A stretch of DNA of 64,000 nt, taken from Spirochaetaceae bacterium (GTDB lineage: Bacteria; Spirochaetota; Spirochaetia; DSM-2461). Numbering within the stretch: position 1 is the stretch's first letter; each line of letters starts with the position of its first letter. Under the pieces are notes generated by a model. That model was not told the origin of the DNA and made no database searches. It worked only from the letters and a program-made list of their open reading frames with translations. This document shows, one piece after another, positions 13,594 through 41,760 of this stretch. The stretch is taken from contig JAOPTT010000014.1 of NCBI GenBank assembly GCA_051531975.1, positions 135,167 to 199,166 on the forward strand. The letters run 5' to 3'. Made by a program: the position numbers and the translations under genes.

Positions 13594-13669
13594 GGTTGCA
13601 TCGGCGAGCAGAACCTTCGTTCGACCAGCCTTGGTTGCATAGGCGAGCAGTACTTTCGTCACACCAGCC
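13594..13669 (-). repeat. Tandem pair of a 37-nt structured motif directly 5' of the argS Shine-Dalgarno sequence
   Basis: Units at 13594-13630 and 13633-13669. mRNA consensus GGCUGGU-[hairpin]-UGCUCGCCnAUGCAACC; the same motif precedes thrS. Confidence 0.85.
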
Positions 13670-13693
13670 TTTAATTTGGTAAATATTTTGTGC

Positions 13694-13722
13694 AAAAAAA
13701 AACGACCCCATTAGGAGTCGTC
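13694..13722 (-). terminator. Intrinsic terminator of the argS attenuator
   Basis: mRNA GACGACUCC-UAAU-GGGGUCG followed by a 9-U tract, upstream of argS. Confidence 0.85.
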
Positions 13723-13743
13723 AAATTATATAAATATATCGTT

Positions 13744-13842
13744 TTAACAATATCTTATAATACCCCTATCCAAGCAAAAAGATTGTCTTCTCCTTGAGTT
13801 AACTGAGTTTATAGATCTGTTAAAAATTCTTGTATTGTTCAT
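13744..13842 (-). CDS. Arg-rich leader peptide of argS (32 aa)
   Basis: MNNTRIFNRSINSVNSRRRQSFCLDRGIIRYC* has 7 Arg including AGG AGA AGA, and lies between the promoter and the terminator. Confidence 0.75.
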   Translation of the reverse strand: MNNTRIFNRSINSVNSRRRQSFCLDRGIIRYC

Positions 13843-13851
13843 TATGTAATT

Positions 13852-13880
13852 AGCATAGTAATTAATATAATATTTATCAA
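13852..13880 (-). promoter_or_regulatory. Sigma70-type promoter of the argS leader
   Basis: TTGATA-N17-TATGCT, 9 nt upstream of the leader ATG. Confidence 0.6.
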
Positions 13881-14249
13881 GGGCTAGTAAATTTGTAGTA
13901 CATTTAATAAAATTTATAGGTGTTGATGTAATAATATTGTTTTAACTGGTCCTCAAGGAACAATAATCCCAGTAATCTGTTCTTTATACTAATATCTCTA
14001 TAAATGTATATGTCGTGTGTATATTTAGGGTCCTGTAAAAGTTACTTATATGTTGAAGTAAAGTGAGTATTCATTAGAATATACTCACAATAATTCTATA
14101 ATTTGGGGAGTTTCCTCTATAATTTCCCAAAGTTTACTTTAGAGTTGAATTATTATACATTAAGAGTGAAACCGAAGTGGTGTTGCTTTTCTTAGTCTAC
14201 AAGAAATGTAAAAAAAGGATAATCTAATTTAAGATTTTGATATATTCAT

Positions 14250-15686
14250 TTAATTGTCAGCAATTTTATCAAAAAAGCTTTCTATGCGATCTACAAAAGA
14301 GACAAGTTTATCATTTCTTTCAAAAATTTCATATTTCAATGCATTATAACATCTTTTTAGTTCCTTACTTAATACGATATCTTCATATAGATCAGATTCT
14401 TCTATATAACTAATATATAGTATAAATATAGAGTACAAATATGGTTTACTTGTAAATTCCAAAGAGTTTTGAAGATATATCATATCAGTTATATCGTTCT
14501 TAATTTTTGATAATTCTTCACCTGAGAAATCTTGAGAAATCTCAAATAATCTTTTAATAAATGGTATAGTGAATTCTAAGTTTGTATCTTTTACATTATT
14601 ACAAATAGTTCGAAGTATTTCATGCACATAATGCAAAAAACCCCTATTAATCATTTTCTTAGAATCAAATTCTATAAAATCTATTCTCAAAGTTAAATTA
14701 AATGATAATTCAATTACAGATGAATTATTATCGTTTATGGATAAAATGGAAAAAGCTTTAAAAAAATCTTTTACAATTGAGTTAATTCGCTCTTCAGAGT
14801 TATAGCTTTTTAATAAATCTTCCATTGCCCAATATATATTGCTTAGTAGTGATTTTATATTTTGAAGCAATATATCTGAGGAAGAAATTGTCTTGATTGT
14901 AGTCGTTAATGCTGCAACATTATCTCTAATTATTTGATAGTTCTTATCTAGTGCGGCAATTTTAATCTCATCTAATAGAAATTGCATGAGTCCATATAAT
15001 ATTGACTCATAGTCAATTCCAAGTTTTATATATTTCTTAATTTTTCTTGAGAATTTTTTTCTTTCTATATCATTTTCAAAACTTGCAATCCAGGTATTTT
15101 GCTTTAAGTTAGTACCACAAATTAATCTGAAGCAAATTTTATCTTTTATTTTTCTTATAGGCTTTGTCTTTATTTTAATAATTGTTAAATTACTTTCTAA
15201 AATACTACTACTCGTTAATGAGTAATCAGATCTAAATAAATCAAAATCTGATTCTTTTTCTAATATCTCAAGTTCATCATTAATTTTTTTCCATTTATAA
15301 TTATTTTGAATCTCTAACATTTTTCTAAAAATGTACTGAAATAAAATATTAAATTTGTAAACATTAGAGTTTTTGTGAAAGTTGTAGTATTTGATATAAA
15401 AACTGATTATTCGTATATATATAATGATGATTACAATTATTATAATTATTTCTGGATATATTTGTTTCCCTATAAATAATGGTGAAACCTTTGATGGTAT
15501 ATTAAATATATCAATAATATAAGTTGACGTTAATAATAATACTGTAAATAAAATAATCCTAAAAATGCTGGCTAATTTTAAATAAAATTCAAAGAAGTAA
15601 TTAGAATATTTATTTGTACCTTGAAAATAGACAATTGCAATAGGAATTATAATTCCAATAATTACGGACAAAAGACCAAATATCAT
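14250..15686 (-). CDS. Hypothetical membrane protein (about 3 N-terminal TM helices plus a helical soluble domain)
   Basis: Long ORF with a GAGGTG RBS and three hydrophobic segments in the first ~100 aa; very AT-rich. Confidence 0.7.
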   Translation of the reverse strand: MIFGLLSVIIGIIIPIAIVYFQGTNKYSNYFFEFYLKLASIFRIILFTVLLLTSTYIIDIFNIPSKVSPLFIGKQIYPEIIIIIVIIIIYIRIISFYIKYYNFHKNSNVYKFNILFQYIFRKMLEIQNNYKWKKINDELEILEKESDFDLFRSDYSLTSSSILESNLTIIKIKTKPIRKIKDKICFRLICGTNLKQNTWIASFENDIERKKFSRKIKKYIKLGIDYESILYGLMQFLLDEIKIAALDKNYQIIRDNVAALTTTIKTISSSDILLQNIKSLLSNIYWAMEDLLKSYNSEERINSIVKDFFKAFSILSINDNNSSVIELSFNLTLRIDFIEFDSKKMINRGFLHYVHEILRTICNNVKDTNLEFTIPFIKRLFEISQDFSGEELSKIKNDITDMIYLQNSLEFTSKPYLYSIFILYISYIEESDLYEDIVLSKELKRCYNALKYEIFERNDKLVSFVDRIESFFDKIADN

Positions 15687-15846
15687 ATATTAAACACCAC
15701 CTCAAATCAGAATTCACTTCTTATTTTATTCAATGTAATAAATATTTTTACCGAATAAAATACCACATAGGAGCGAACTCTCATTATTTTATTTCAGAGA
15801 GTATAACAAAAGGTTTGTCACTTCCAATATCTTACTCTATTTTATA

Positions 15847-17655
15847 TTAAACGATAGTTAATTTTAATTTTCTTCTATCGAGTTTTCTTTGAATTTTTGT
15901 CATTGATATTTTACTACGCATCCAATTTCTTAAATTAAATGCTTTTTGCATATCTGACTCACTGGAATCATATTCATCACCAATAATCTCTTCAATAATT
16001 TCAAGAATATTATTTATTAGTTTTGTTATAGCTCCATTATCTAATAAATATTTACCATCAAGAATATGATTAACAATAGTTCTTTGACTAATTGAATCAT
16101 GAAACCTATAAACATATCCTATTGCATAAATAATTTGCCATTTAGCCAACGTCGACTGATATCTTATTGAATCCTTATCTATTACCTTTTTTTCGTTTTT
16201 TAACATTTCTTGTAGATGAATCCATATAGTAATTATCGCAGCTACTTCTTTTGTTCTACATTTATCATAAAAATTTAATTCTTCATCATCTTCTCCAAAT
16301 ACTTTCCAATAAAGTCCTCCTAAATTAGAATCTGTTTCGTATAATAATGAAGATTTTGATTGAAAAGTAATAGGATCGAACATAAATGAATATAATAACT
16401 TTGCTAGAGTATCCATTTGCATAATTGATACATATTCATTTTTTCTTTTTTTATGATATCGTCGTTTTGGTTGATACAAAATTGATATATGTGGATTTTG
16501 TCCTTTATAGGAAAATTTTTGAAGTTCTTTTTCTAAAAATACTTGAATATCATCATTTGATCTAAAATCAGAGATTTTAATTGCTGTTTGATTATTATTT
16601 GCAGTAATTATTTCTCTATTTATTCCCTTTTTTTCAGATTTAAGATCACCTGCTTTTGTCAATCTCATAATTACTTGAACATCATTTAATTTACCTAGAT
16701 ATTCTTTTTCCATTTTTGCTATTGTAGATACTGTTTGAGCCCCATTAATTATTTGAAAGTTTTCACATTCTATACATGTATGAGGACCATCTTCTATCAC
16801 CTCATAGCTAGTACATATTGCAGATATTCCATTGTTTAAATAATAAAATAGTTCAGGATGATTTATAATCGTATTCTTTATTTTTTTATTTACAGGTTTT
16901 GCTCCTAAATAACCACGAATATTATAAGTAAACAAACTTTCTCGATTATTATTGTACTCATAAATACTTTTAATCTGTGATCCTTTAATTATTAAAATGA
17001 CTGTTTCGTAATCCGTTTCTTTAGCAACTAATTTTGTAATGTCTAAATATGCTTTATTATCTCTTGAAATTGTTTGAATAGGTATTTTAACTTTATCAGG
17101 TATTCCTTTAGACTGTGATATCGTATTTTTATATTCAATCCATATTTCATTTAAATCAACAAAGGAATAATCAATTTTCTCTGATTTAGTTTTTGTTTCT
17201 TTCAAATATTCATCAATATCAACATTGGTAACAAAATAGTAATATACAGATTTTTTAGAAGTAAAATCTTGTAGATGAAATTTTAACTCTTCGTTTCCGT
17301 GCTCTATCACGTAATTTTTATTTATTAAATTATCATGTAATAATTTGAATCCAGCAATTTCATCTCTATCAACGGTATGTTTTTTTCCTTTATACTTAAA
17401 CTGAAAAATTAAATAATTATCATCTTTAATGAAAATGCAATCAGCACCTAGATCTCCTGCTCCATCAATATTCAGTCCATCTTCAATTTCTTCATCGGTT
17501 AAGTTAAATTTATTAGACAAAATTTCAGTTACATAGAAATATGCAAAAGCATAACCTTTATGTATGTTACTTGGTTCAATAATTCCTTTCTTTTTATAAT
17601 AATCTTCCATTTTTTCTTTTATAATTGTTTTCATTTTATCTTTAGATATTTTCAT
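15847..17655 (-). CDS. AIPR family protein with N-terminal PD-(D/E)xK/Mrr-like nuclease motif
   Basis: AIPR motifs NIRGYLG, FYYLNNGI, QIINGAQT and NNQT; N-terminal DGAGDLGAD...FQFKY. Confidence 0.9.
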   Translation of the reverse strand: MKISKDKMKTIIKEKMEDYYKKKGIIEPSNIHKGYAFAYFYVTEILSNKFNLTDEEIEDGLNIDGAGDLGADCIFIKDDNYLIFQFKYKGKKHTVDRDEIAGFKLLHDNLINKNYVIEHGNEELKFHLQDFTSKKSVYYYFVTNVDIDEYLKETKTKSEKIDYSFVDLNEIWIEYKNTISQSKGIPDKVKIPIQTISRDNKAYLDITKLVAKETDYETVILIIKGSQIKSIYEYNNNRESLFTYNIRGYLGAKPVNKKIKNTIINHPELFYYLNNGISAICTSYEVIEDGPHTCIECENFQIINGAQTVSTIAKMEKEYLGKLNDVQVIMRLTKAGDLKSEKKGINREIITANNNQTAIKISDFRSNDDIQVFLEKELQKFSYKGQNPHISILYQPKRRYHKKRKNEYVSIMQMDTLAKLLYSFMFDPITFQSKSSLLYETDSNLGGLYWKVFGEDDEELNFYDKCRTKEVAAIITIWIHLQEMLKNEKKVIDKDSIRYQSTLAKWQIIYAIGYVYRFHDSISQRTIVNHILDGKYLLDNGAITKLINNILEIIEEIIGDEYDSSESDMQKAFNLRNWMRSKISMTKIQRKLDRRKLKLTIV

Positions 17656-17725
17656 TAAAACTCCTTATATTTAAATGATGAATGTATTGACCTTGTCGTA
17701 TTCTTATATTTATTTTTTTTGGGTT

Positions 17726-18748
17726 CTATCCCACAATCAACCCCTTCTGTGGCAGCAAGTCCCTAAGAACGTATGTTCTGTATATTGATGCCGCTTGAAA
17801 GAACTTGTAGACGTGTTGTAGCTTTACTGTTTCTGATGGCATTATTTGTAGGTTTATTATGTCTTCGTTCCAGGGTCTGTAGGTTGGGATGTCTTCTTTT
17901 ATGTGTTTGTATAATGACCCATCTATTCCTGCTGTTTGCCATGCTAAGATTCTTTTTGCTTTTGGTTCTTTTTGAGATAGTATATTGCTAACTGTCTCTT
18001 TAATATCGTCGAACTGTAGGTTTACATCTGGGTCTGTTAGATCTGGGCGTAGGTTTGCTATCTTCTTAAAATAGTTGAATAATCCTTCTGAACCTTCCAT
18101 AAAGGTTTTATGATTATCTCTTATGTCTGATTGGTTATTACCATATTTAAAAGACCAGGAAAGGTATGGTCTATCAGGGTTAGTGTATACGCAGCCATGT
18201 CCAAGTGGTAGGAATCTTGTGAACCTAGTTAAGAACTTCTCTTTTTTCTTGTTTATATGGGCTAATATTTCTCCAACTACACCAAGTTTTATACTATCTG
18301 TATCAACTAAATTTATTTTATGATTAATCCCTGCAAAACCGTAATGGGCAAAAGTATCTGCATAAACATGGGCTATTACACCTACAAGTTCAACAAAGTA
18401 CTCCTTGTCTACATTTTGATAAGCATAGTCTAATATTTTTAAAGCATTGGAACTATTCATCCTACAAACTAATCGATCGTAATAACTCTCGCCCTCATTC
18501 CCTGGTAAAAAATGAAAAGGAACCCAAACCTTTCTTTGATCCTTCTTATTTGCATTACTTATATTTGTTGCGTGGTGAGCAGTTGCAATGGTATGAATAC
18601 ACGAACCGTCTGATAAAATTATATCCTCATCTTTTGCATTGTCATCAACAAACTGTGCTGCTGTTGCAATGACTCTAACTATTTCTTTACTTAAACCTGC
18701 TGCCCTTGCTAAAGCAAAGGTCCCATAATAATGCATATCTATTTGCAT
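17726..18748 (-). CDS. DUF6765-like protein (putative Zn-dependent phospholipase C/P1 nuclease fold), paralog 1
   Basis: MQIDMHYYGT, QFVDD, PFHFLPGN, HVYADTFAH, LGHG and PDRP motifs. Confidence 0.75.
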   Translation of the reverse strand: MQIDMHYYGTFALARAAGLSKEIVRVIATAAQFVDDNAKDEDIILSDGSCIHTIATAHHATNISNANKKDQRKVWVPFHFLPGNEGESYYDRLVCRMNSSNALKILDYAYQNVDKEYFVELVGVIAHVYADTFAHYGFAGINHKINLVDTDSIKLGVVGEILAHINKKKEKFLTRFTRFLPLGHGCVYTNPDRPYLSWSFKYGNNQSDIRDNHKTFMEGSEGLFNYFKKIANLRPDLTDPDVNLQFDDIKETVSNILSQKEPKAKRILAWQTAGIDGSLYKHIKEDIPTYRPWNEDIINLQIMPSETVKLQHVYKFFQAASIYRTYVLRDLLPQKGLIVG

Positions 18749-19018
18749 GTAACATCCTTGTTTTAATTATCCTGTTAACTTTATTAATAATGTTATCAGG
18801 TTTATTGCACATGTCTATAAACCAAAAGTTATATTTTTGGCTATATTTTCATATTTCCTTATAGATTTGGCGCTATATTGTTGGGTTTTAACGTGTTTCT
18901 TGTTAATTGTTTGGGTTTTACTGCTTTTTTATGTTTATTTAATCTTAAATTAATATTTCTTTTATCTTTGTTTAATATTTGTTATTGGCATGTTGTTGCT
19001 TTAGTTTTAACTTTAGGC

Positions 19019-19037
19019 AATACTTAACGTAAGTATT
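19019..19037. promoter_or_regulatory. Candidate ROK-repressor operator
   Basis: aatactta-acg-taagtatt inverted repeat just upstream of the ROK gene RBS. Confidence 0.55.
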
Positions 19038-19053
19038 AAATCGAGGAGCTATT

Positions 19054-20070
19054 GTGATATTAACTACTGGGAATGTACGGGATTTAAATAGAGAACTTAT
19101 TCGGGATTTTCTTCGGACAAATAAATTTGGGGATAAAAACTCTATATCTAAAAGTACTGGGCTTAGTATCTCATCATGTCGGAATATATTAAATGATATG
19201 ATTAAAACTGGAGAGATAACTGAAACTTCATCTGGGCTCTCTAATGGTGGAAGGCCTTATAAAAGGTTTTGTTATAATAAAGACTTCTCCTTTATTGGAG
19301 TTATATCTGTTCGTAATAGTGGAGATAAAATTTATCTCTATAACTCTGTAAATAATCTGTTTAAAGAGAGTATTCAAAGTTCACAGGATGAATTTTCATC
19401 TCTTAGTTATTCTGATATTGAAGCTGTTGTTACAGATATGGTTAGGGATTATCCCAAGCTAGAAGCTGTATCTATTGGTATCCCTGGAATTGTAATAGAC
19501 GGTTATATAGATATGTGCGATGTTGAAGAATTAAGCCATATACACCTTAAGCAAAAATTAGAAGAGAAGTTCTCACTTACTATTGTTGTAGAAAACGATG
19601 TTAATGCTGCAGCTATTGGATATTACACAGAGAGTATTGATAAAGAAGTTGAGAGTTTTGTTTATATATATTTCCCTCATGATGGGATACTTGGAGCAGG
19701 AATAATTATTAACGGTAAGATTATTAGAGGTGCTACTAATTTTGCTGGAGAAGTTGGATCTCTATCCCTTAGTTATGAGTATGAAAAAAAGAAAAAGATA
19801 CAGGATGATATGGATACTTTTTTAAACTATGTATCGGAAATTATTGTATCTGTTAATGCTGTATTAAACCCAAATGAGATTATAATTTCTTGGTCTAAAA
19901 TGGAGGGCGATTTTATGTTTTTATTAGCTGAAAAAATGTTAGCCCGAGGGAATAAACAACACCTACCTAAACTAAATAGTAATAATAATTTACACACAGA
20001 TTATATAAACGGACTTTTGTATTTAGGCATGAAAGAGATATCCTGTAAAATTGGAGTAACAGAACTATGA
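19054..20070 (+). CDS. ROK family transcriptional regulator
   Basis: N-terminal HTH with GGRP, then GIPG, ENDVNAAAIG, GAGIIING and AGEVG; GTG start after GAGGAG. Confidence 0.92.
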   Translation: MILTTGNVRDLNRELIRDFLRTNKFGDKNSISKSTGLSISSCRNILNDMIKTGEITETSSGLSNGGRPYKRFCYNKDFSFIGVISVRNSGDKIYLYNSVNNLFKESIQSSQDEFSSLSYSDIEAVVTDMVRDYPKLEAVSIGIPGIVIDGYIDMCDVEELSHIHLKQKLEEKFSLTIVVENDVNAAAIGYYTESIDKEVESFVYIYFPHDGILGAGIIINGKIIRGATNFAGEVGSLSLSYEYEKKKKIQDDMDTFLNYVSEIIVSVNAVLNPNEIIISWSKMEGDFMFLLAEKMLARGNKQHLPKLNSNNNLHTDYINGLLYLGMKEISCKIGVTEL

Positions 20071-21245
20071 TAACAACAATTCTTTTAATCATTATATATT
20101 TAGCTTTTATTAGTTTAGGACTACCTGATTCAATATTAGGTGTAACTATACCTAGTTTGATTGATAAAATGGGTATTTCACTATCAGCTGGTGGGGTTAT
20201 TAGCATGGTAGTTGTTGGTGGATCTGTTATATCTAGTTTCTTTAGTGGCTATATTATTAAAAAAATTGATACTGGTAAAATTGTATTTATTAGTTGTCTA
20301 ACTACAGGGTTAGCACTATTTGGATTCTCTATAGCACCATCGTATTTCTGGTTAATATTATTAGCCCTACCCCTTGGACTTGGTGGTGGAACTGTAGATG
20401 CAGCACTAAATAATTATATTGCTCTTCATTATAAAGCACATCATATGAACTGGTTACATGGCTTTTGGGGTGTAGGTGCAACACTTGGACCACTAATTAT
20501 GTCATGGAACCTCTCTAATGGTGGAAGTTGGAGATTTGGGTATAAAACAATATCATTTCTCCAGTTATCTTTGGCCCTGTTTTTACTGCTTAGTATCTCT
20601 ATATGGAGAAGGCATAAAGTCTTACATGCCCCTGTTTCCCAGGAGGTTCATTCCTCTGCTTATAGTGGGAATATCTTTAAGATGAAGGGACTAAAATATG
20701 CACTAATAACAGTACTTATATGCTGCGCCGTAGAACTTGGGGCAGGACTATGGGGAAGTAGTTACCTTGTAAGTATTAGGGGATTTAGTTTAGATAGTGC
20801 AGCTAGGTTTGTATCCTTGTATTATGCCGGAATAACTTTAGGCCGGTTTGTCTCTGGGTTTATATCATTTAAGTTAAATAACAGACAACTTATATTTTAT
20901 GGAACAATAATATCCTTAGTTGGGGTTCTACTACTACTTCTTAACCTACCTAACCAGATAACAGGTGCTGCTTTAGTTTTAATAGGGATTGGTTTAGCTC
21001 CAATATTCCCATCTATGTTACACGAAACACCTAAACGGTTTGGTAAAAAATTATCCCAGAAGATTATTGGATACCAGATGGCATTTGCCTATATGGGTAG
21101 TGCAATTGTACCTGTGTTATTAGGAATAATGTTCGACTTTATAAATATAAGTTTACTGCCTATAGCACTGTTTATTTTATTAGGTTTCATGCTTTTCTCT
21201 ACAAGTAAATTAAATAGAGTAACAGGAGAATCATATGAAGATTAA
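20067..21245 (+). CDS. MFS transporter (fucose permease-like)
   Basis: About 12 TM helices; FISLGLPDS, DAALN and HMNWLH motifs. Confidence 0.9.
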   Translation: MITTILLIIIYLAFISLGLPDSILGVTIPSLIDKMGISLSAGGVISMVVVGGSVISSFFSGYIIKKIDTGKIVFISCLTTGLALFGFSIAPSYFWLILLALPLGLGGGTVDAALNNYIALHYKAHHMNWLHGFWGVGATLGPLIMSWNLSNGGSWRFGYKTISFLQLSLALFLLLSISIWRRHKVLHAPVSQEVHSSAYSGNIFKMKGLKYALITVLICCAVELGAGLWGSSYLVSIRGFSLDSAARFVSLYYAGITLGRFVSGFISFKLNNRQLIFYGTIISLVGVLLLLLNLPNQITGAALVLIGIGLAPIFPSMLHETPKRFGKKLSQKIIGYQMAFAYMGSAIVPVLLGIMFDFINISLLPIALFILLGFMLFSTSKLNRVTGESYED

Positions 21246-21624
21246 TCATATAGCTTTCTGGGTAAAAGATTTAGAGAAAATGAAGGATTTTTATCAGAGG
21301 TTTTTTAATTGCACATCTGGTGATAAATATGTAAACAGTAAAAAGTTCTCTAGTTATTTTTTAACATTTGATTCTGGGGTTTCCATTGAACTCATGACAA
21401 AACCCTATATTTCTAATAAACAAGATTCTGCAGATGCCTATGATGTTTTTGGATATGCCCATATAGCTATTTCTGTCGGTTCTAAAGAAATTGTGAATTC
21501 TCTTACAGAGAGACTTAGGTCAGCTGAGTATGGGGTTGTAGGAGAAGTTAGAACAACTGGGGATGGTTATTATGAGAGTGTAATATTAGATCCAGAAGGT
21601 AACAAAATTGAGATTACTATTTAG
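21235..21624 (+). CDS. VOC/glyoxalase family protein
   Basis: MKINHIA, GYAHIAISVGS, RTTGDGYYES and DPEGNKIEI motifs. Confidence 0.92.
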   Translation: MKINHIAFWVKDLEKMKDFYQRFFNCTSGDKYVNSKKFSSYFLTFDSGVSIELMTKPYISNKQDSADAYDVFGYAHIAISVGSKEIVNSLTERLRSAEYGVVGEVRTTGDGYYESVILDPEGNKIEITI

Positions 21625-21632
21625 GATATTAA

Positions 21633-22655
21633 TTAACCTACAATTAGTCCATGTTTAGGTAATAACTCTTTAAGTACAAATGTTCTATATATAGATGCTG
21701 CTTGGAAAAACCTGTAGACATTTAATTTGTTTAATAGATCAGTTGTTAGTTCGTTAAAAAATCTTAAATCCTCATTCCATGATCTATAGTTTGGAATATC
21801 TTCCTTAACTGAACCAAGGAAGTCCCTGCTTTTTACTGAGTGTTTCCATGCCTCGATTCTTCCATCTAATGGTTTCTGCTGAGACAATATCTTGGCTACA
21901 TCTTCTTTAATATGATTAAAAGTCAGATTGATATCAGGATCTGCAAACTCAGGCCGGAGTTCTCCTATTTTTTTGAAATAATTAAAAAGAGCTTCTGAAC
22001 CTTCCATAAAAGTTTGATGATTATCCCGTCGATCTTTAACGTCATTACCAAACTCAAAAGACCAATAGAGATATGGTCTGTCAGGGTTAGTAAATACTCC
22101 ACCATGACCAAGGGACAATGTATTTGCATAATTCACAAGGAACTTCTCTTTCTGTTTATCTAGATGTTTTAAAACATCACCTACTGAGCCAACTGTTATA
22201 GTCTCAGATTTAACACTGTTATTATGGTTTGTTATTCCAGAAAAGCCATAATGTGAAAAAGTATCAGCATATACATGGGCAACAATTCCAACTAGTTCAG
22301 CAAAATAATCTTTATCTTTATTAAAAAAAACATACTCTAGTACATCTTTGGCTGTTGGACTATTTTTTTTGCAAACTAATCGGTCGTAATATGTATCACC
22401 TTCATTCCCTGGTAAAAAATGAAAAGGAACCCATACTTTATGTTGGTCTTTCTTTTCAATATAACTTTTATTAACTGGGTGATGGGCTGTTACAACTGGG
22501 TTAACTGTAGCACCGTCTGGGAGCTCAATATCCTCGTGGTATGAGTTATCATTTACAAACTGGGATGCTGTTGCAATTACATGAACAATATCCTTTTTTA
22601 ATCCTGCTGCTCTTGCTAGAGCATAGGTTCCATAATAATGCATATCTATCTGCAT
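21633..22655 (-). CDS. DUF6765-like protein, paralog 2
   Basis: Same length (340 aa) as 17726-18748 and colinear with it, with many identical blocks. Confidence 0.75.
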   Translation of the reverse strand: MQIDMHYYGTYALARAAGLKKDIVHVIATASQFVNDNSYHEDIELPDGATVNPVVTAHHPVNKSYIEKKDQHKVWVPFHFLPGNEGDTYYDRLVCKKNSPTAKDVLEYVFFNKDKDYFAELVGIVAHVYADTFSHYGFSGITNHNNSVKSETITVGSVGDVLKHLDKQKEKFLVNYANTLSLGHGGVFTNPDRPYLYWSFEFGNDVKDRRDNHQTFMEGSEALFNYFKKIGELRPEFADPDINLTFNHIKEDVAKILSQQKPLDGRIEAWKHSVKSRDFLGSVKEDIPNYRSWNEDLRFFNELTTDLLNKLNVYRFFQAASIYRTFVLKELLPKHGLIVG

Positions 22656-41490: not shown

Positions 41491-41502
41491 TTAATACTCC
41501 TT

Positions 41503-41595
41503 GGTTGCATAGGCGAGCAGGAACATGTTCCGACCAGCCCTTGGTTGCATAGGTGAGCAGAAACTTGTCTCGAGAAGAACGGGTTCCGGCTAGCC
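41503..41595 (-). repeat. Tandem pair of the same structured motif directly 5' of the thrS Shine-Dalgarno sequence
   Basis: Canonical 37-nt unit at 41503-41539, and an expanded two-hairpin variant at 41543-41595. Confidence 0.85.
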
Positions 41596-41605
41596 ATTAT
41601 AATAT

Positions 41606-41635
41606 AAAAAAAGCTCCAGTGTAGTACTGGAGCTC
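41606..41635 (-). terminator. Intrinsic terminator of the thrS attenuator
   Basis: mRNA GAGCUCCAGU-ACUAC-ACUGGAGC followed by 7 U. Confidence 0.9.
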
Positions 41636-41670
41636 TATGGTTAAAAACTAACGATACAAAACTCCAGAAA

Positions 41671-41724
41671 TTAATCTGTTGTGGTTTGAGTCGTTGTTGT
41701 TGTAGATTTAACATTTATAATCAT
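41671..41724 (-). CDS. Thr-rich leader peptide of thrS (17 aa)
   Basis: MIINVKSTTTTTQTTTD* has 8 Thr codons covering ACA, ACG, ACT and ACC. Confidence 0.9.
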   Translation of the reverse strand: MIINVKSTTTTTQTTTD

Positions 41725-41731
41725 GTCTAAT

Positions 41732-41760
41732 ATTATTAAGAAAATTCAACTACATGTCAA
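41732..41760 (-). promoter_or_regulatory. Sigma70-type promoter of the thrS leader
   Basis: TTGACA-N17-AATAAT, 7 nt upstream of the leader ATG. Confidence 0.75.

Follow-up and report, generated by a model that had tools for sequence, protein, structure and literature searches.

A putative arginine-codon attenuator before a second arginyl-tRNA synthetase gene of a spirochaete

In a genome of the Spirochaetaceae, the second of two arginyl-tRNA synthetase (ArgRS) genes is preceded by an element (13,694-13,880, minus strand) that is probably a ribosome-mediated transcription attenuator, which would switch this argS on when Arg-tRNA(UCU/CCU) is under-charged. Positions refer to the window, that is, the whole stretch of 64,000 nt that was analysed (Table 1). 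The leader ORF with its Arg codons, the complementary segments, the terminator, the argS gene, its status as a second copy and the presence of sister leaders can all be read directly from the DNA. In the mechanism that we propose, transcription would start just before the AUG and the ORF would be read from a near-leaderless mRNA. When Arg-tRNA suffices, the ribosome would pass codon 23 before the polymerase finishes the terminator and would cover or split the antiterminator, and the transcript would end near 13694. When it is scarce, the ribosome would linger on AGG-AGA-AGA, with Arg 5 and Arg 9 adding to the delay, so that UAGGGGU would capture the emerging ACUCCUA and the polymerase would read into argS.

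Table 1. Positions of the features of the argS leader region and of the sister element before thrS
Feature	Position	Strand	Basis
Candidate sigma-70-type promoter, TTGATA (13880-13875)-N17-TATGCT (13857-13852)	13852..13880	-	consensus match 9/12
Leader ORF, 32 codons, MNNTRIFNRSINSVNSRRRQSFCLDRGIIRYC, near-leaderless	13744..13842	-	read from sequence
Control codons AGG-AGA-AGA (codons 17-19)	13786..13794	-	read from sequence
Hairpin spanning the RRR codons, -7.5 kcal/mol, perhaps a pause hairpin	13770..13797	-	predicted
Antiterminator 5′ strand UAGGGGU (codons 25-27), near copy of the terminator 3′ arm	13762..13768	-	
AU-rich inner hairpin, -5.4 kcal/mol, UAA stop near apex	13729..13759	-	predicted
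Intrinsic terminator GACGACUCC-UAAU-GGGGUCGUU and U tract (9 U)	13694..13722	-	sequence and predicted fold
Two 39-nt dispersed-repeat copies, ending at the argS ribosome-binding site AGGAG	13594..13671	-	
argS, 580 aa, spirochaete-type ArgRS, second ArgRS of the genome	11839..13581	-	TIGR00456, 471 bits (cut-off 262)
Sister element before thrS (ATG 41490): promoter, Thr-run leader 41724-41671 MIINVKSTTTTTQTTTD, terminator	41606..41760	-	

The Arg-rich leader and its argS gene

On the minus strand, a candidate promoter, a 32-codon ORF, the segments UAGGGGU and ACUCCUA, a terminator with 9 U and then argS follow one another in this order. A preliminary description had named these parts, and they were found where it had placed them: the promoter TTGATA-N17-TATGCT, which agrees with the consensus at 9 of 12 positions, though such sites occur at chance frequency here (6 found against 5.2 expected); the ORF of 32 codons, with 7 Arg and AGG-AGA-AGA at 13786-13794; the pairing of UAGGGGU with ACUCCUA, which comprises 7 bp with one G-U; and the terminator, with a stem at 13722-13701 (9 bp, -13.4 kcal/mol) and 9 U at 13702-13694. 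Its assignment of the downstream gene to argS was borne out by the TIGR00456 match. Terminator-like sites numbered 3, against 0.4 expected.

Transcription is predicted to start 3-4 nt 5′ of the leader AUG. This AUG stands 9 nt past the -10 hexamer; the gap is shorter in the genome's Thr, Ser, Gln and Leu leaders. No Shine-Dalgarno sequence precedes the ORF. Arg occupies codons 5, 9, 17, 18, 19, 26 and 30, every one of them AGA or AGG, which make up 60% and 14% of Arg codon usage in the genome; the tRNA-Arg genes include two for UCU and one for CCU. Two of these codons come after the predicted switch point: Arg 26 is part of the antiterminator strand and Arg 30 falls within the inner hairpin, and a ribosome stalled at either would cover the antiterminator. 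In nascent-peptide arrest sensors such as SpeFL and the fungal AAP, a peptide of conserved sequence binds a free metabolite in the exit tunnel; a phmmer search with the 32-aa leader peptide against 1.84 billion proteins returned one weak match only, to a repeat protein.

The chance level of such an ORF was estimated from 801 intergenic ATG ORFs of 25-40 aa of the same genome. Results showed RRR in 7 of them, at least 7 Arg in 4 and both in a single one, which precedes one of the genome's two argS genes. Among 2174 intergenic ORFs of 15-40 aa, runs of three were counted 15 times for R, 18 for Y, 23 for S and 6 for T. These frequencies bear on an alternative in which the ORF is open by chance, the terminator ends upstream transcription or leaks, and argS expression is constant and low or comes from a site in the repeat. 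We regard it as very unlikely: a gene on the same strand (14250-15686) could supply the upstream transcription, the promoter match and the antiterminator are near chance, and the leader is not conserved in any locus read, but only 1 of 801 ORFs has such Arg content and it stands before argS, the terminator lies 550 nt beyond the stop of the upstream gene, and none of the listed promoter-like sites falls between terminator and argS.

The argS gene starts 113 nt past the U tract, with a ribosome-binding site AGGAG at 13592-13588. It is 28% identical to the other ArgRS gene of the genome, which lies on contig C9, belongs to the type found in 3/3 genus relatives and follows an intergenic gap of 22 nt with no leader. 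The ArgRS type of the window was present in 34/37 genomes of the family; among the matches listed, most other genera have a conserved gene upstream of it at a short gap. More than one PF00750 match occurred in 3 of 401 genomes of the class, namely this one, G098, whose pieces lie on three contigs, apparently at contig ends, and G283. Two of the three ArgRS-domain matches of G283 (L312, L313, L316) are in 610-aa frames. According to a protein search, the closest relatives of the window ArgRS are P0002-P0004, full-length proteins of 580 aa with 88, 89 and 74% identity, and in a 20-row tree the close relatives formed a clade with 100/100 support on a long branch. By its named matches (Oceanispirochaeta and Spirochaeta isovalerica), the family belongs with the free-living spirochaetes. 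The GC3 of argS, 0.24, falls within the range of the genome (0.21, sd 0.05). The enzyme has 17 Arg, whereas the other copy has 23 and 29 orthologues have 17-47; the notion that it is poor in Arg was nevertheless not supported, since the genome has the lowest GC and the close relatives have 18-21 Arg.

We also weighed whether a once-working Arg attenuator might be decaying before a redundant argS that the genus is losing. This ArgRS type is found in 0/3 genus relatives (96, 81 and 71% complete), a repeat has been inserted in the leader and the spacing is looser than in the sister leaders, all of which would fit decay. The gene is intact, however, with its HLGH and KMKS motifs invariant and all 10 well-conserved Arg positions retained, and the three full-length relatives of 580 aa at 74-89% identity likewise make decay a poor explanation, to which we give little credence.

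The dispersed repeat between terminator and argS is one of a family whose 18-nt core was counted 31 times, in 19 clusters. Of these clusters, 17 end 11-21 nt short of a start codon, in most cases at an AGGAG-type site. Copies of 39-42 nt, often in tandem, stand at the ribosome-binding sites of unrelated genes, and the repeat also occurs before thrS (~41495-41560, minus strand). Since the thrS leaders of genomes G001 and G003 do not have it, the repeat is probably a later insertion and not a part of the switch. At this locus an RNA sequencing run touches the dispersed repeat only. Pieces related to the repeat were seen in RNA run X2. The join between terminator and argS rests on the assembly: it crosses a 31-nt exact repeat (3 copies), where Logan contigs break, with depths of 38.7 and 35.7 on the two sides in a run from which the assembly may have been made. 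Reads of ordinary length make a misjoin unlikely, and the match of an Arg leader to argS argues against it. The region upstream of the leader (14250-22655, minus strand) is possibly an accessory island. It contains a gene for a 478-aa membrane-type protein, which NCBIfam does not match, one for an AIPR-family protein that resembles MzaE at a score below cut-off, and a pair of similar 340-aa genes at 17726-18748 and 21633-22655. On the plus strand, a hairpin with a terminator-like score (14102-14131) lies in the gap that separates the upstream gene from the argS promoter.

Folding of the leader RNA and the modelled switch

The partner of UAGGGGU, ACUCCUA, occupies positions 13718-13712 in the 5′ arm of the terminator. 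Closed by the inner hairpin, the antiterminator reaches -12.0 kcal/mol in all in the predicted fold, and the terminator is compatible with the inner hairpin as well. The predicted hairpin over the RRR codons (13797-13770) leaves UAGGGGU free; in some folds a longer AU-rich alternative covers part of it. We modelled the capture of the terminator 5′ arm by folding only the RNA 3′ of the ribosome (A site + 9 nt), with the terminator 3′ arm not yet made. Capture was 0.97-0.99 with the ribosome at codons 4-22, fell to 0.12-0.13 at codons 23-24, rebounded to 0.54-0.91 at codons 25-28 and was 0.01-0.09 at codons 29-33; with no ribosome on the RNA it was 0.69. Once the terminator was complete, it won the equilibrium in every case of the model (capture at most 0.06). 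The antiterminator can therefore win only kinetically, because the finished terminator is more stable.

Since in the model the antiterminator forms by default as long as the ribosome is at or before codon 22, and likewise in ribosome-free RNA, the switch would amount to a race to codon 23. A ribosome that is short of the exit from codon 22 when the polymerase stands at 13718-13700 would give read-through. These results modify the mechanism of the preliminary description. Its reading of the element as an attenuator is supported by the cognate sister leaders and by the modelled switch just past RRR, but the idea that a stall frees UAGGGGU needs qualification, as this strand is not locked until the stall in the model. 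The same applies to its proposal that full translation masks UAGGGGU: a ribosome at the stop codon would prevent the helix by occupying its loop and not by covering the strand.

Taken by itself, the antiterminator pairing is little better than chance, a capture of 0.97 also being reached by 84 of 500 dinucleotide shuffles and by 7 of 96 gene-end terminators. When the same model was run on other leaders, the drop came 1-2 codons past the cognate run in the Ser, Gln and Leu leaders, in the Thr leader of G001 and in the Trp leader of G005, where occupancy rebounded after the drop; in the Arg leader it comes 4 codons past RRR. The Thr leader of G003 and the Tyr leader of G005 switched only partly. 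We take the fold model to be crude because neither of the genome's own Thr and Tyr leaders switched cleanly, the Thr leader still giving 0.95 at the stop and the Tyr leader never more than 0.49.

A race of this kind could also serve as a general sensor of transcription-translation coupling, in which any slowing of the ribosome before codon 23, be it by Asn or Ser starvation, by antibiotics or by poor initiation, would give read-through and Arg would be one input among others. The modelled default at codons up to 22 and without a ribosome would suit such a sensor, as would the 5 Asn and 4 Ser codons that the leader holds before codon 22, in the permissive window, and an initiation that looks weak, with no Shine-Dalgarno sequence. 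Yet the only run of three is of Arg and matches the downstream enzyme, and each sister leader carries a run fitting its gene. We consider a general sensor unlikely and retain attenuation by Arg codons as the preferred reading.

Sister leaders, other argS loci and other routes of control

A blind scan of the 4466 ORF-called genes of the genome yielded 104 pairs of an ORF and a terminator, which were ranked by amino-acid enrichment. The first two ranks were taken by a Gln run before a MetRS-like gene and a Thr run before thrS, ranks 3 and 4 by a repeat before a giant protein, and rank 5 of 104 by the Arg leader. A Leu-rich leader before leuA followed at rank 10, where the leuA-like identity is assigned from a sequence motif, and a Tyr run before tyrS at rank 13. 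A Ser leader was absent from the scan because the gene start had been called upstream of its terminator.

We also surveyed 25 aminoacyl-tRNA synthetase genes found by Pfam search and read the DNA upstream of them; EpmA, a hisZ-like gene and pheT were left out, and the Cys, Lys and PheS genes were presumed to be such from sequence motifs. An ORF with a terminator precedes five of the 25 (the second Arg, Tyr and Ser genes, thrS and the MetRS-like gene), a count that excludes the operon heads of the nine genes with gaps below 60 nt. In four of these five, the ORF has a run of the gene's own amino acid, RRR for the second ArgRS, YYYYY for the second TyrRS, SSSSS for the second SerRS and TTTTT for thrS; the fifth, before the MetRS-like gene, has a Gln run. 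Where the genome has a pair of synthetase genes (Arg, Tyr, Ser and Met), only the copy that is absent from the genus relatives carries a leader. This agreement between leader and gene within one genome is the strongest support for the attenuator reading.

G001 and G003 also have the Thr leader before thrS, and their terminator stem is the same; the Tyr leader is kept in G005. We therefore take the mechanism to be under selection in the lineage. As judged by eye, the six leaders of the genome start 6-11 nt after a -10-like hexamer and have no Shine-Dalgarno sequence, and in four of them (Thr, Ser, Gln and Leu) a hexamer-17-hexamer arrangement ends 6-8 nt upstream of the AUG. From the short distance between -10-like hexamer and AUG and from the missing Shine-Dalgarno sequence we infer leaderless initiation. 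Common descent of the leaders was considered and rejected: in alignments of the Arg leader with each of the other five (Thr, Tyr, Ser, Gln and Leu), between 18 and 265 of 300 shuffles did as well as the true sequence.

The Tyr-run and Ser-run leaders, with their terminators, lie upstream of the second tyrS at G000:C10:76574 (L132) and the second serS at G000:C5:435951 (L155). The second TyrRS contains only 7 Tyr against 13 in the first, which places it at the 4th percentile of the genome. The Gln-run leader and its terminator lie upstream of G000:C3:152264 (L194), and the mismatch between Gln and Met suggests that this MetRS-like gene has a function other than Met charging. The Leu-rich leader, also with a terminator, is upstream of the leuA-like gene at G000:C14:128703. 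In G005, of a neighbouring genus, a WWW leader precedes the second trpS (L136), a leader with a terminator precedes leuS (L119) and a YYY leader precedes the second tyrS (L131).

No Arg leader was recovered at other argS loci. A first set comprised 76 distinct loci, two of them from this genome, after 5 more had been dropped for their short upstream DNA; a terminator-like site was present at 8 of the 76, and an Arg-run ORF at this locus only, the 74 others having none. In a second set of 98 loci, out of 100 chosen from 150 of about 400 matches and possibly overlapping the first, 15 had a terminator-like site and none had RRR. The conservation check that the preliminary description had called for thus gave a negative answer for about 170 other argS genes in the two sets, which were not de-duplicated and did not include the closest orthologues, P0002-P0004. 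That description had counted a lack of conservation in relatives among the outcomes that would speak against it. Six weak candidates were read and discarded, five of them being inside upstream genes and the sixth, L293, having an RR frame with no convincing terminator. The leader DNA gave six short matches in 300 genomes of the class (E 3e-4 to 1e-3, 23-45 nt), taken as chance. As no homologous leader was found, covariation lends no support to the Arg element. We gave this null result less weight because the loci sampled are single housekeeping copies and the closest orthologues lie outside the sample.

Other routes of control were looked for in the same DNA. No T-box (RF00230) was matched in the leader or in the genome, and an Rfam scan of the 64-kb window at the gathering score returned one tRNA and no leader family. 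The genome has an ArgR gene, and argR heads an argC-argB-argD-argG operon, the gene names of which we take partly from sequence motifs; no leader ORF of the Arg-run kind lies upstream of it. Control of argS by ArgR was rejected: an ARG-box pattern matched only at 14146, ~270 nt upstream of the promoter, and it is common (0.56/kb). In the leader and the 260 nt around the argS promoter, neither a T-box nor an ARG-box-like site offers an alternative. T-boxes were matched in 26 of 38 genomes of the family, one per genome and 9 of them over the Rfam cut-off, with none in G000, G001 and G003. That of G005 stands before its thrS, which suggests that a leader took the place of a T-box at thrS, the lineage with the Thr leader lacking the T-box of G005.

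A wider reading, which we put forward tentatively and somewhat short of even, is that the genome holds a set of reserve synthetases (for Arg, Tyr and Ser, and a Met-like one under a Gln leader), each under its own near-leaderless codon-run attenuator that would do the work of a T-box. The Arg member would then be the ancestral-type ArgRS of the family, displaced as housekeeper by another ArgRS and kept, under a newly built Arg-codon switch, as a backup induced by starvation or an inhibitor.

Comparison with known systems

E. coli pheST has a classical leader-peptide attenuator before a synthetase gene. One study names E. coli pheST among such attenuators and predicts others before trpS2 and leuS of Streptomyces; in its available text, no leader-peptide attenuator for arginine was found in Actinobacteria, and arginine is listed under T-boxes (PMC1262725). 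A His leader has been described before hisS paralogues of bacilli, in a paper whose available part does not mention arginine (PMC2965389). The argS leader has in common with these systems a short ORF of cognate codons, an antiterminator, an intrinsic terminator and a synthetase as target, often a paralogous copy; it is unlike them in its Arg specificity, in having argS as target, in belonging to a spirochaete, in its near-leaderless ORF and in having no clear hairpin that locks the antiterminator strand.

A full-text literature search, the coverage of which left most subscription journals and supplements outside, so that a predicted case in a survey table is possible, returned no Arg-codon attenuator on argS or arginine synthesis; within that coverage, the earlier suggestion that the element may be new stands. 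What appears to be new is the amino acid (Arg), the target (argS) and the phylum, the mechanism itself being textbook and the element being seen in one genome so far. If the proposal is true, arginine and argS join the targets of classical attenuation, and Spirochaetes join the groups that use it. The leader would be a compact sensor of Arg-tRNA charging and would illustrate how such switches can be built locally before a redundant synthetase. A codon run in a leader can also point to the function of a gene, which is relevant to the Gln-run leader before the MetRS-like gene.

Upstream ORFs that sense arginine through Arg codons are already in print with other outputs. In Salmonella orf34, upstream of speF, consecutive Arg codons sense arginine by ribosome pausing, which refolds the RNA as it would in the argS leader; the output there is RNase G decay, Rho termination and unmasking of the RBS of a polyamine gene, in contrast to the intrinsic terminator before a synthetase in our case (PMC6386406). 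The leader peptide rbfL of Staphylococcus aureus senses Arg limitation through AGA and AGG codons, as we propose for argS, but its pausing blocks a downstream RBS and lowers expression, whereas pausing in the argS leader would raise transcription (PMC13009471). The fungal arginine attenuator peptide senses free arginine (PMC11550727), and codon choice has been treated in theory (PMC1183508).

The argS T-box of Firmicutes (RF00230) resembles our proposal in that uncharged tRNA-Arg is sensed and premature termination before argS is controlled. A T-box controls one of the three argS genes of B. cereus, and none was found in the 6 spirochaete genomes covered by that survey in its available text (PMC2494555). 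A T-box binds the tRNA directly and needs no ORF, whereas the argS leader has an ORF and no T-box is matched in it or in the genome. Finally, the polycysteine leaderless ORF attenuators of mycobacteria, in which leaderless initiation is documented, have been called a 'ribulon' (10.1101/834739). As we propose for the spirochaete leaders, several loci in a single genome have leaderless short ORFs with runs of cognate codons; the ribulon ORFs, however, unmask an RBS and respond to one common amino acid, whereas the spirochaete leaders each have a terminator and a different amino acid.
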